Counted from the whole stretch's first letter, positions 7,776-55,800 are shown. The stretch is 63,705 nt of DNA, filler included, from Collodictyon triciliatum (GCA_043381765.1; 6 parts of 6 records of this genome joined end to end with filler, not necessarily neighbours in it); one strand, 5' to 3'. The notes: generated by a model from the letters alone, not told the origin. Program-made: numbers and translations.

Positions 7776-10700
7776 ATGAGCTCCAAAGGTCGTGGCACTC
7801 CGGCATCTCTTCTGACTCCAGCACTAGAAATCTTCGCTGACGACCAAGAAACGCCGATAACAAGGCGCTCAGGCCCGTTTTTTCGCTTCGCAAGCACACA
7901 AGGGTCTGCGGCAGATACAGCCAGACGAAGAACTCAACGATTTTCTCAAGTTTCAATTGTATGTTTATTCTTTTTTTTTTCTCCTCCTATCGCCCGCTCC
8001 GGAACTCCAACCTTTTAAGACCAAAGTATATCTTGACTAAAATAATTGCCTATTTCTTAATTTAATTTTTTTTTTTGAAATGAGCTACACTAATTATTGC
8101 TGAGTCAAAGGGTTAGTTCAGAATAAAAAAAGTTCTGTATTTCACTTTGCCAAAGGGTTAGGTTTTACATAACTTTGTTTTGATAAACACTAATGCTGTG
8201 CGTCCTTTCAAAATCTCCCAGGGTTCGCGTGTGACTGGCATTTCAGATGTCACTGATTTACCGGTATATAAATTCATATTCCAAGAGCTTAATCCCATTC
8301 TTACATGAATACATAATGAACTAATTGTTCGATATGTGTATCTTGTAATATCTTAAAATTGTGCGGGTATATGACTTTGATATAATACGACCTATGTGAC
8401 TCTATATTCTCCGTATTCTGTAGACTGAAGCAGATTGGGACATACACGAGGGCAGAAAATTCCAGACCCAAACAAAAAGCTCTGAAAAGCACACACATGA
8501 GTCAAAGAAACTCTCATCCATAGTGGATTCTGGAATTGCTGAACCACGTGGGGAATCACATCAACCAGCATTACAAAGTTATGGTGCGTTTTCGGATGAC
8601 GGATACAACGCCACGTACAACCAGGTGTTTTTTCTTTAGATGTAAACTTAGCGATTCAATCTCAATATTTCGATATGTTACTCATATTTCTCTGCAAATT
8701 TTTTTCAAAGGATGCACTTTTGATGGTTACCAACGTGGCTGACATTCCTAATTGCGTGCTGTTTGGTGTATTTGACGGACATGGCAACCATGGAGATGAG
8801 GTTTTTCAGAAAGAGTTTTACAATAACCAGAAGATTTGCATTTGTTTACAACGGTGCACTTACTAGACCATATATGTAAAAGAAATGAAATCTTAAATTT
8901 GAAAAAATATCTAATTATGAAATCGACATAAATTGGGTCATATTTGACTCGCTCACAGGTCGCACATTTTGCGAAAGACACATTACACAAAAAATTCCTG
9001 GAGAAGATTGGACCAGAGAAACATCTGCGTACTTTGGAGGAGATGAATACAATATTTCAATCATCTTTTCTCGAGACACATGTAATTTACCGTGTATCCA
9101 TTTCATAGTAATTTCAAAAACAAGCTATCCTTTTTACTTCTTTTCTTCTGCTTTAAATTTTTTTAATTTATAAATTTACATAAATACAGGCTGAAATGGA
9201 GAAAAAAGGGGACCAGTTTCTTTTGACGGGGACAACAGCCTCTATTGTCTTCATTCAGAACAGAAATATGTTCTTTGCTCATGTCGGAGACTCAAGAATC
9301 GTTCTTGGAAGGTTGAATTTTATTCTTTCATGTTCACTTCTTTTGATTTATTTTTAAAAAAAAATTATCAACCCATTTTACAATATCATACCTTGCCATT
9401 TTCTCAAATAGTGCACTGTTCCAATTTGAATTAAAAAAATTAGAGAATGTCCCATATGTTTGCGGCTCAACAAGTTTCAATCAGAAAAGAGATTACCCAA
9501 AAAAATGAGTACGCATATTGTCGCATATGGTGCAACAACAGACCATCGAGTGGGTGAAATAATGGCCGAGAGAGACCGCATAGAAAAGGTTTGTTTTAAA
9601 TTACAAAATAGGAATAAAAATAAAAAGCACATTTACATCAACGGACAATTAAACCTCATGTTTTTTTCCCTTTATTCGATTCAAAGAACCCCATGTTTTT
9701 TTTTTAAATATATGTCGAACATTCTATCGGAAGGCTGGTGGAGAAGTTAAGCTAGACCCCAGATTACCTCCTGGCTCGATTGATGAATTAAGGATATTTG
9801 CAAAGGGCCAACACTACCCTGGCTTAGTTACTAGCAGGACACTTGGTGACAAAAATATATTTGACATACTTAAATCGCCTCACCATTTCTTATTGTGCAA
9901 AATAATTTATATTTTAATTTTATCTTTGATTATATATGTCGAATCAAACAGTTGGTGGGTATGATGTTAGGTTGAATAAATTTCAGGAATAATATAGTAA
10001 CCACGCCGTTATTGATATTCAAGGTGACTTATTGGGCCATTCCATTGGTGTAATCTCTCAGCCCGAAGTATCCTATAAGATTATAGACGAGTATGATAAG
10101 TTTATCATTCTCGGGAGCGATGGCGTTTGGGATATTCTATCTAATCAGGTTTTTACGTACAATTCTTTTTCACAAAATGCTCCATAATCATCATTCACGC
10201 TTATTCAACATAGAAAAAAAATGTAAACATACTCCAAGGTATTGCAGTGGTTTTTTTTCTTCTCTTTCTCAAAGTCATCACTTAATGACCAGGAGTCGGT
10301 AAACCTAGTTGCAAAGTTTAAAAATCCTTCAGAGGTTCTTGCTCTTTGTCACTTGAAACCCTCTTTTAACATTAACAAAAAGAATACCTGATAGGATGGA
10401 ACACATTCAATCATCCAAACCATTCAAACTATCCTTACTTCCTTTTTTTTTAAAAAAAAAATTCAGGCAACTAACGCACTGGTTGATGAGTGTGTTCGGG
10501 GGTGGAGCGACGAGTTTGATGTTGGAGACAATGTCTCTGCGATTGTTTTGTATTTGAACGATTTTTTCCCATACGCACACACCCCGAAGACACCATTGAC
10601 AAAAGCGGTCACCGGTTGCGGGCGAATGTGGACATGGAATGACCTTATTCAATCTAAAGACGTGAGCCAAAGCGAGTCAACTCTAAGCCAGACACAACAG

Positions 10701-10952
10701 ACTTACGACGAATCCCAACAAATCATTACACCACCGAGAAAGAGTCCCACCTCAAGTGTCGAGGTGAAGCCTGCATCTAGTAAATCAACGAATGATACAA
10801 TGCAAATAAGGAAACAATTAGGTAAAAATCAGGAGTCAACTCAGTCATTCTCGAACCTCATGGCTGGAGGCGATGGCAGTGGCGTTGGCACTAGCACACA
10901 ACTCGTAACCAGGAAAAAATATTCGAGGTCTGGTCTTTGTATTTTGGTGTAG
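7776..10952 (+). CDS. Protein phosphatase 2C (PPM family) with C-terminal CaaX
   Basis: Spliced motifs NQDA, FGVFDGHG, TGTTA, AHVGDSR, TDHR, GLVTSRTLGD, LGSDGVWD and GDNVSAIV; ends RKKYSRSGLCILV*. Confidence 0.92.
9652..9702 (-). mobile_element. Micro-retroposon family 1 insertion with target-site duplication
   Basis: CTTTGAATCGAATAAAGGG(A)n between near-identical repeats aacc(t/c)catgttttt, inside a PP2C intron. Confidence 0.7.
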
Positions 10953-52822: not shown

Positions 52823-55800
52823 TTATTCGTCACTATTATCAAGCTCAATGACTCCAAATGACCCTCCAAATGCGATGTAAGCTGCTCCAAGGGTGATAAT
52901 AGTGTCGAAAATCTAGAATCACACATCATTAACTTTGAATCGAATAAAGGGGAAAGAAATATCACACATCATCAACAATTATCAAGTTTGGCATAAGTCT
53001 AGGCTTCACCAGCAACCTTAAAATTATTCAAAAAAGATTTTGGAAATACACAAGATATAGCAGCCCTTAAATGTCTTACTTGTCCTGCAAAGTAAAGCAT
53101 GACCGGCTTTCCACCTATCAGTTTCTTACGAAGCTTAGAGAAGTCAGTCTCCATTCCAATGCCTGTACACACACGCACAAAAATAAAAAAAAAATACAAA
53201 AGTGGAAACCCCCCAGATAATCCAATTCGTTAAGGCAAAATGTCTTTCCTTTAAGCTTCGATTCACTCCCACAAAAATACTGAAAGAGGACCCCTTGCGT
53301 ACTATGTATGTTCTCGTATTTCTTTCATCAAAAGGATACACACAAATGCAAGCGTTTCCCACCACTTGCTGTAGCTCGCTGCGATGTCGATTATGGTGTC
53401 CACTGTTTCCACTCCAAATGCTGGCTCGAAAATGAAAGATATAATCAAGCTATTCACAAGGAATCCAAGCACAAACTGCACAAATGCAACATGTGAATAA
53501 CTACTCACGGCACTCATAAATATATTGATTGAAAGATTGAAAGAAGCGAGATAATATCCAGAGAACGACAGTTTTACCTTGGGAAATCTCTCCCACAACA
53601 CTCCCAAAGTCGACCCTGACTTCTTCTCTGTAGTATTTCGTAATTCAATAAAATTCTCACTTAAATCTACAACATCGGGGCTATGGTGCATAATTCAAGG
53701 AAAAGGAAAAAAAATATATGATTCTCCTGCAAGGACATTAAATAAAATAGGAAGGAAAAAAACTTACCAGACCCAAGGTAATTGATCCAATAATATGTGA
53801 TGGCCGCAGCGACAGGGCCTCACATTATACAATACCATCAGAGATCCCTTAGACTTTCACATTTTCAAAGAAAAAGGAGAAAGATGCGCAAAATACATCG
53901 CTTGAATTTGAAAAAAAAAAATAGCTCTTTGACGACTTTGCCTGAAGTTGATTCGCATCCCTCACACTGCAAAAGCAAAAAAAAAAAAAAAAAAAAAAAA
54001 AAAAATTTTTTTAAAAAACAAAAAAAAAAAACCCTGCACCACCCTCCACACCCNNNNNNNNNNNNNNNNNNNNNNNNNNNNNNNNNNNNNNNNNNNNNNN
54101 NNNNNNNNNNNNNNNNNNNNNNNNNNNNNNNNNNNNNNNNNNNNNNNNNNNNNAAAAAAAAAAAAAAAAAAAAAAAAAAAAAAAAAAAAAAAAAAAAAAA
54201 AAAAAAAAAAAAAAAAAAAAAAAAAAAAAAAAAAAAAAAAAAAAAAAAAAATGTTCAGAAGTACCTATAATCACATTCTGTGTCATCTTTACAATCGACG
54301 CGATGTCTTCAGCATCTTCAGATACAATAGCAGCGGACACCAAGACTGGCCCAGTGCTGTCCACAGACCCTCCAATCCATGCACCAGCGACATACTCATC
54401 CAATCCAAGGGCAATCGCGATGTATGGGTCGCCTATGATGTGAAAAGAATATTTGGTCGCATCAGGTCACTCCGCGAATACCAAGATGAAATAGATTAGT
54501 GTAAACTTCCGGTCTCATAACTGAAAGAATGATAAAATAGAAACAAAGAAAATCAGTGTCCTTATGCGATTCTATAGCTCTTTTTCTCACCAATCATGAA
54601 TATGATTGTGAAGACTGTAGTCAGTCCGATTGAAAGGGTCAGCTCTTCGTTGGGTGCTCCGCACGCAGCCGCAGCGGCCGCAGCAGCAGACGAGCCACAG
54701 ATAGATGTTGCTGACGAAACCAAACACACCTGGTTGTTGTTTTTCTCTTTGAGTCAGTTGAATTGGACAGTTTCTTTCCTTTTTTTTTTCTCAGATTATA
54801 TCGTTTGCATACAATTTTCGTGATTGTTCATGGTGAAGTTGAGCATGGGAATGTATTGATAGGCTTACAAGAGTGAGAGACTCAATCTTGAAAAGGTAAA
54901 TGCCCGCGTACCACATGAAAACAAACACAAAGGGCACAACCAACCACGTCACAAACAAGGTCGGTGCTCCAAGCTTAATAATGGTCTATATGGAGAAGTA
55001 AAGTCAGTCATAGTCGTTCAAAGTGTTCACATCGATAGATGTTGGATTATAAAGCGTTAATTTTTCTACCCGCACACGAATTATAATAGAAAAATTGAAG
55101 GGAAAAGAGTAGCGAAAAATAATAATAATAAAAAAATAATAAATAATAAACAGAAAGGACAATCGAACAAGTGGTCAGAGACATAAGGCAAGGCATAAGG
55201 CATAAGGCATAAGGCATAAGGCATAAGGCATAAGGCATAAGGCATAAGGCATAAGGCATAAGGCATAAGGCATAAGGCATAAGGCATAAGGCATAAGGGA
55301 TAAGGCATTAGACATAAAGGAAAACCTGGAACTTAATAACCAACATGACGAGACCAATCTTGATGAAGTATTCCGCCCTTGAACCAGCAATCATCCAATC
55401 ACGCGCCCCAATAACATTTGTAATTACAAGCCCTGCAATAAAGCACCAAATCGAGGCTCCGAACTATAGGTAGAGACATCCTTCGTTTGAGTTTTTGAGA
55501 CAATCATAACAGTAAATTAAATGTCACAAATAACACGCACATATATGCTTAGAGCATTTGTTAAGTTTTTGGTTTTTGGCTTTTGTTTTGTTTTCTTTTG
55601 CTTTGTTTTCTTTTGTTTTGTTTTGTTTTCTTTTCTTTTCTTTTCTTTTCTTTTCTTTTCTTTTCTTTTCTTTTGTTTGTTTATTTATCAGTGTCATGTG
55701 TGTGGTAAGTCTGGTGTGGGTGTGTAATACTGTACCCCGTTATCTGAAAGATTTTGTTGCGCTCCAATCCAGTTGCAAAAGAAAGTCACAAGGAATCCAA

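Follow-up and report, generated by a model that had tools for sequence, protein, structure and literature searches.

Ultra-short poly(A)-tailed inserts in Collodictyon triciliatum DNA are very probably extremely 5′-truncated copies of an L1-like LINE

What is the short sequence that recurs on separate scaffolds of Collodictyon triciliatum, each time followed by adenosines and often set between direct repeats? We analysed a stretch of 63,705 bases from this genome (GCA_043381765.1; hereafter the window), of which 61,428 are not N, and in which six scaffolds are joined by linkers of the form N44-TTAATTAATTAA-N44 (18339-18438, 27154-27253, 37199-37298, 49135-49234 and 60111-60210). An earlier note, made from the sequence alone, had described a family of poly(A)-tailed retroposed inserts here and had read it as either a micro-SINE (short interspersed nuclear element) or an extremely 5′-truncated long interspersed nuclear element (LINE). 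Its description proved accurate in nearly every detail. Our analysis strongly favors the LINE: the inserts are very probably extremely 5′-truncated copies (element parts of about 11-72 nt, then a tail) of a poly(A)-tailed, apurinic/apyrimidinic endonuclease (APE)-type (L1-like) non-long-terminal-repeat retrotransposon, each one an independent retrotransposition.

The 18-mer CTTTGAATCGAATAAAGG occurs exactly at 9669-9686 (-), 24229-24246 (-) and 52933-52950 (+), on scaffolds 1, 2 and 5. With up to three mismatches allowed, further matches appear at 47549, 33786 and 26188 (two mismatches each) and at 23913 (three), giving 7 matches against 0.12 expected. The 12-mer core ATCGAATAAAGG is exact in a copy at 44330, which the 18-mer search did not include, and at up to one mismatch it has 7 matches in the window against 0.54 expected; none of 100 shuffles reached either observed count. 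In a 12-mer census of the window, words of this family (family 1) are the commonest dispersed non-simple words. The search bears out the three exact copies on three scaffolds that had been reported. The variants that had been listed, at 44330, 47550, 33791 and 23913, were recovered too, and 26188 is an addition to that list. The match at 23913 lies inside a coding open reading frame (ORF) with an RA_2 domain and is probably due to chance.

For the flanking repeats, we aligned the 60 nt after each copy with the 400 nt before it and derived p-values from shuffles. A direct repeat starting right after the A-rich tail accompanies five of the eight family-1 matches, each at shuffle p ≤ 0.005, in agreement with the earlier reading of five tailed copies between 15-18 nt repeats, three pairs perfect and two with one mismatch. 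Family-blind scans added two inserts with A-runs and 13-17 nt duplications, which have the terminal word TTGAAAGGAAGAATAAAA in common, at 12212 (-) and 46369 (+) (family 2). In the non-N bases of the window there are seven convincing inserts (five of family 1, two of family 2), all of this lineage:

9652..9702, minus strand: family-1 micro-insert (copy 9669), insert CTTTGAATCGAATAAAGGG (9668-9686), element part 19 nt; 16-nt repeats with 1 mismatch, AAAAAAACATG[G/A]GGTT, at 9687-9702 and 9652-9667 (score 13, p 0.0 of 200 shuffles)
24206..24277, minus strand: family-1 micro-insert (copy 24229), element part 34 nt (24229-24262), tail A8 (24221-24228); perfect 15-nt repeats AAGAATCTGTCGCTC at 24263-24277 and 24206-24220
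44314..44367, plus strand: shortest family-1 micro-insert (copy 44330), element part (AT)CGAATAAAGGG (44332-44342), 11-13 nt, tail A7; perfect 16-18 nt repeats AAGATCAACATGGATT(AT), with 2 nt of possible microhomology
47477..47589, plus strand: variant family-1 insert (copy 47549), 72-nt element part (47495-47566) ending in CTTCGAATCGAATTAAGG, tail A5; perfect 18-nt repeats AAGCTTGGACTTCTATTT
52918..52976, plus strand: family-1 micro-insert (copy 52933), element part (C)TTTGAATCGAATAAAGGGG, 17-21 nt, impure tail AAAGAAAT; 16-nt repeats with 1 mismatch, ATCACACATCAT[T/C]AAC, at 52918-52933 and 52961-52976 (p 0.005)
12193..12261, minus strand: family-2 micro-insert (copy 12212), CTTTGTATGGCACAAAAAGTTGAAAGGAAGAATA plus A-run, element part 33-34 nt; 13-nt repeats CCTTTCATTTATC
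46333..46406, plus strand: family-2 micro-insert (copy 46369), TCCACAATCCTGCACATAATTGAAAGGAAGAATA plus A-run, element part 34 nt; perfect 16-17 nt repeats (A)AAAATGCTCTTTTGGT

In all seven, a 13-18 nt duplication adjoins a 3′ A-run. Pure tails range from A5 to A10, some A's being ambiguous at the junction; at 9669 the A-tail has merged with the A-run of the repeat and is not separable from it. Family-1 inserts measure 18-77 nt with their tails, the size originally given for them, and the observation that most carry AATAAA before the tail also holds (four of five, with AATTAA in 47549). In a family-blind control, the order repeat-insert-A-run-repeat was found 9 times versus once for the mirror arrangement, and this lineage accounts for 6 of the 9. 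Within each family, the last 17-18 nt alone are common to all copies. The element-derived 5′ ends differ in every family-1 copy, at about 11, 17-19, 19, 34 and 72 nt. Target junctions read T|A at six of the seven inserts, including TTT|AAAA (9669) and AT|AAAAA (46369). The three targets that had been described as (T)T|AAG-like are TT|AAG at 24229 and 47549 and CT|AAG at 44330.

We found the likely source of these tails outside the window. When metagenome contigs were scanned for the 18-mer plus RAAAA, one contig matched, L001 (1,157 bp); the 18-mer pattern had 0 matches in prokaryote genome contigs and 0 in viral contigs. On its minus strand, L001 carries the 18-mer followed by A10, and the preceding kilobase is GC-richer. 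Its ORF at 549-1157 (202 aa, open at the 5′ end) matches the Pfam domain zf-RVT (E 1.5e-7, 32.4 bits, cut-off 27.5). Beyond a frameshift, the reading stops at a TAG, and the 3′ untranslated region (UTR) between it and the last base of the 18-mer is 93 nt long; the intact frame is present in the proteins P0010 (98% identical) and P0011 (62%). Since L001 thus presents an ORF2 C-terminus followed by a short 3′ UTR, the 18-mer corresponds to the last 18 nt of a LINE ORF2 3′ UTR. The insert at 24229 is colinear with this UTR, identical at 48 of 48 nt with the tail included (blastn). Compared with L001, possible microhomology at the 5′ junctions amounts to 0-4 nt (AT at 44330, AC at 52933 and CTTT at 12212; 9669 and 24229 lack it).

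The window itself holds a longer copy of the parent LINE:

49235..49814, minus strand: longer decayed parent-LINE copy, consisting of a zf-RVT piece and a piece of the end of the reverse transcriptase (RT)

Positions 49235-49446 are 93.9% identical in DNA to L001 627-838 (blastn), and the minus-strand translation of 49235-49453 matches zf-RVT (E 1.8e-7, 32.2 bits) and is 93% identical in protein to P0010. The second piece, 49569-49814 (-), aligns with the RT end at residues 704-803 of the proteins P0018, P0020 and P0021 (tblastn E 9e-6 to 4e-5; BLASTP 5e-8); the short pieces of this copy have no match to Pfam RVT_1. The two pieces lie ~115 nt apart versus ~260 residues in P0018, so that ~0.65-0.7 kb is apparently missing between them. 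Together with an in-frame stop in the RT-end piece, this spacing indicates that the copy is decayed and internally deleted. Furthermore, it begins at the first base of scaffold 5 with its 3′ end cut off, which indicates that the assembly broke inside the repeat. A Pfam scan of all 229 stop-to-stop ORFs of at least 75 aa in the window found no RT, endonuclease or zf-RVT match; it missed this fragment because the open piece is 73 aa, and blastn and tblastn found it. Searching with 17 related proteins (tblastn) revealed no other LINE coding pieces in the window.

We next consider what kind of LINE this is. A protein search with the L001 ORF against 1.84 billion representative proteins gave 14 matches. 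The close ones (59-98% identity) are short metagenome fragments without names, and the search found no longer close relatives. Four distant matches, P0018-P0021, are full-length (1,226-1,275 aa; 25-38% identity, P0018 being at 28% by BLASTP), and all four contain Exo_endo_phos and RVT_1. Three of them (P0018, P0020 and P0021) have a weak zf-RVT signal of 22.6-24.6 bits, below the cut-off of 27.5, and P0019 has none. The best match of P0018 among solved structures is human LINE-1 ORF2p (E 3.4e-57 over residues 3-871), with R2 proteins at ~1e-23. The domains of these distant relatives and the solved-structure match support an APE-type, L1-like architecture for the parent. The earlier attribution to the L1 clade in the strict sense is supported only indirectly: the domain architecture and the best solved match both come from relatives of ~30% identity, and other APE-type clades have no solved structure to compete.

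Taken together, the LINE origin that the earlier note had proposed as one of two options is upheld by the L001 18-mer and A10 behind a zf-RVT ORF, by the colinear insert at 24229, and by the fragment at 49235-49814. By analogy with what is established for L1, an insert would arise as follows. At a site of the T|A(A) type, the ORF2 protein of the element would nick the bottom strand, and the released T-rich 3′ end would serve as primer on the poly(A) tail of RNA from the same element. Synthesis of cDNA would then halt after only ~10-70 nt, the top strand would be nicked 13-18 bp away, and the short cDNA would join the upstream end, aided by microhomology of 0-4 nt. The product would be the element tail plus A-run within a 13-18 nt target-site duplication. 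We found no fold signal in the L001 3′ UTR (z +0.65; 148 of 200 shuffles reach an equal or better fold), which gives no support to a structured recognition hairpin and makes poly(A) priming the simpler reading. No other polyadenylated RNA contributed to the seven convincing events in the window, all of which belong to this lineage; this suggests cis preference.

Several observations weigh against this account. L001 is a metagenome contig and does not come from the genome of the window. Of the element's own ORF2, only the RT end and zf-RVT are seen, the endonuclease and a complete RT being known only from relatives that are 28-30% identical over ~160 residues. Three of the eight family-1 matches have no significant flanking repeat (23913, 26188 and 33786; p 0.87, 0.99 and 0.66). 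Two targets depart from the L1 consensus, reading GA|AT (or CT|AG) at 52933 and AT|CC at 12212. Finally, the upstream parts of the inserts at 47549 and 46369 have no counterpart in L001 or in the sister copies, and part of these inserts may not be LINE 3′ UTR.

The composition of these last two inserts bears on how many source subfamilies there are. At 47549, the 54 nt upstream of the 18-mer share no block with the L001 3′ UTR beyond chance, and this stretch could be either a diverged subfamily or captured filler. Because the duplications of this insert are perfect yet its 18-mer has two differences, we attribute it to a diverged source subfamily and not to decay; several metagenomic ORF2 C-termini at ~60% identity would fit such a subfamily. 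For family 2, the first 12 nt of the insert at 12212 are CTTTGTATGGCA, a block that recurs in the L001 3′ UTR, 43 nt from its end (0 of 2000 shuffles). On the strength of this common 12-nt block, family 2 is taken as a sister LINE subfamily. Another 12-nt match to the L001 UTR, at 40458-40469, has no tail and no repeats and was treated as chance.

An improbable alternative is a non-autonomous micro-SINE, or tail-only parasite, whose own short RNA would carry the last 18-35 nt of the LINE and be copied in trans by the LINE enzyme. SINEs that borrow LINE tails are established, according to PMC3747384, and a unit of this kind could account both for the terminal 17-18 nt being all that the copies have in common and for upstream parts at 47549 and 46369 unrelated to the L001 3′ UTR. 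Against it, the variable 5′ ends define no unit length, and on this ground the micro-SINE option of the earlier note finds no support. There is also no head resembling tRNA, 5S or 7SL: the one tRNA that Rfam and ARAGORN detect in the window lies away from the inserts. Over its 34 nt, the insert at 24229 follows the LINE 3′ UTR exactly. Moreover, the diverged upstream parts accompany diverged tails, as in the 18-mer of 47549, which is what LINE subfamilies predict.

It is also very unlikely that the inserts formed without target-primed reverse transcription (TPRT), through endonuclease-independent capture of LINE cDNA, or of templated filler, at repaired double-strand breaks. Their small size would suit such a process, as would the unrelated filler that two of them may hold. 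Endonuclease-independent L1 insertions, however, typically lack both duplications and a 3′ A-run, and each of the seven inserts has a duplication of 13-18 nt with the A-run at its edge; nor did the window yield a template from which the unmatched upstream sequences of 47549 and 46369 could have been copied locally. Least credible of all is chance similarity or assembly artefact, already refuted for the five core copies: the DNA is AT-rich and full of A-runs and microsatellites, its assembly is fragmented, and the matches at 23913 and 26188 may be chance, but the shuffles fall short of the observed 18-mer and 12-mer counts, flanks and duplication differ from copy to copy, four scaffolds are involved, and an independent metagenome contig has the same sequence at the end of a LINE.

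If the inserts are truncated LINE copies, why are they so short? The skew to lengths below 80 nt is real in the window, but it is biased by assembly and selection. An RT that aborts easily may combine with selection against longer inserts in a gene-dense genome and with breaks of a short-read assembly at longer copies. A more far-reaching proposal, which we regard as rather doubtful, is a regime in which most TPRT events end prematurely, at 10-70 nt. Across the genome, long copies would then be fewer than micro-inserts, which would occur at ~one per 9 kb and amount to thousands to tens of thousands of AATAAA-bearing tags. The 17-18 nt terminal block, kept by subfamilies with otherwise dissimilar 3′ UTRs, would serve as a recognition or polyadenylation module.

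The mechanism is an ordinary one, 5′ truncation, in an unusually short form; only the extreme shortness and the density stand out, and biases of assembly and selection account for part of each. The inserts resemble the 5′-truncated ("dead on arrival") copies of mammalian LINE-1 in their poly(A) tails, variable 5′ ends, T|A-type nick sites and 0-4 nt of 5′ microhomology. The parent element likewise has the ORF2 C-terminal Cys/His zinc motif, and its distant relatives combine an APE endonuclease with RT. Human L1 copies average roughly 1 kb, whereas all seven duplication-flanked copies described here are below 80 nt. The present element also differs in having a 3′ UTR of only 93 nt, AATAAA 2-3 nt from the tail and an AT-rich, protist-like host, and its protein relatives above 59% identity are exclusively unnamed metagenome fragments. 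The duplications of 13-18 nt fit the length distribution given for human L1, which peaks at 14-16 bp (PMC2912911).

Two other known systems offer partial parallels. Like LINE-tail SINEs and tail-only retroposons, the inserts are short, non-coding, built from the 3′ terminal sequence of a LINE and dispersed with duplications; unlike such SINEs, they have no unit length, no RNA polymerase III-type head and no conserved 5′ end. The C-terminal zf-RVT domain (PF13966) recalls L1-like elements of plants and oomycetes, and zf-RVT proteins of Streptophyta, Oomycota and Mucoromycota form the nearest Atlas clusters, which serve as leads only; no alignment-based relationship to these elements above ~30% identity was shown for the present one. 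Word searches of open-access text returned no paper on this family or on a genome dominated by LINE tail inserts below 80 nt.

These findings describe a LINE lineage that has no named close relative in the collections searched. They show that tail fragments of 20-80 nt with duplications can be a major visible footprint of such a LINE in a fragmented protist assembly. For annotation, the inserts are best masked as LINE tails, and not taken for regulatory motifs or a new class of element. If the ultra-short skew holds genome-wide, it would bear on what determines 5′ truncation. Should the abortive regime prove true, such a genome would lend itself to the study of what sets RT processivity and 5′ joining, and its tags could act as widespread cryptic poly(A) sites.

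The surroundings of individual inserts add some detail. In L001 (97-103) and at 24214-24220, the flank after the tail begins with AAGAATC, and two other targets have AAGATC or AGAATC. Flanks of this type are compatible with an A-rich T|A preference, and on the seven sites available the target preference may extend beyond T|A. The insert at 24229 lies between two plus-strand exon-like ORFs and probably sits antisense in a small intron, judging from these flanking ORFs. From 22130 to 24180 (+) and beyond, exon-like ORFs encode SH3, MyTH4 and RA-like domains, which suggests a MyTH4-type myosin gene with short introns.

Three further loci resemble family members less closely, and a single gene for a structured RNA lies near one of them:

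33786..33807, plus strand: old family-1 remnant (probable), ATTTTAATCGAATAAAGGAAAA, in which the 13-mer AATCGAATAAAGG is exact, plus AAAA
26188..26208, plus strand: old remnant or chance match, TTTTGAATTGAATAAAGGAAA, with 2 mismatches, only 3 A and no flanking repeat
60494..60551, plus strand: doubtful third tail variant, ...CACAGTTTGAAAGG plus A-run; 12-nt repeats AAAGAGTA[A/G]CAT with 1 mismatch (p 0.14)
33543-33615, minus strand: tRNA-Asn (GTT), the sole Rfam or ARAGORN match in the window

The sequence at 33786 is probably an old family-1 remnant. It lies 171 nt from the tRNA-Asn gene, a single case that is no evidence of tRNA-gene targeting. At 26188, both an old remnant and a chance match are possible. 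TPRT-like matches at 529-685, 14838-14986 (inside an LRR ORF), 16860-16920 (purine-rich, and also a mirror match) and 18913-19174 were set aside as chance or coding repeats.

Elsewhere, the window is eukaryotic in character and AT-rich outside exons. Runs of N other than the linkers mark gaps in the assembly, bordered by homopolymers or by microsatellites, among them (AAAAAC)n, (AAT)n and (AAAG)n. Domains encoded by the window's ORFs include LRR, WD40, GPS-motif, GT92, SH3, MyTH4 and RA-like. A GC-rich segment at 16897-18336 (0.55) contains long overlapping ORFs of 384 aa (-) and 360 aa (+) without a Pfam match. A 582-aa GT92 glycosyltransferase ORF at 60573-62321 (-) hints at a sparsely sampled protist host, its only close homologues being EukProt transcriptome proteins of at most 65% identity.

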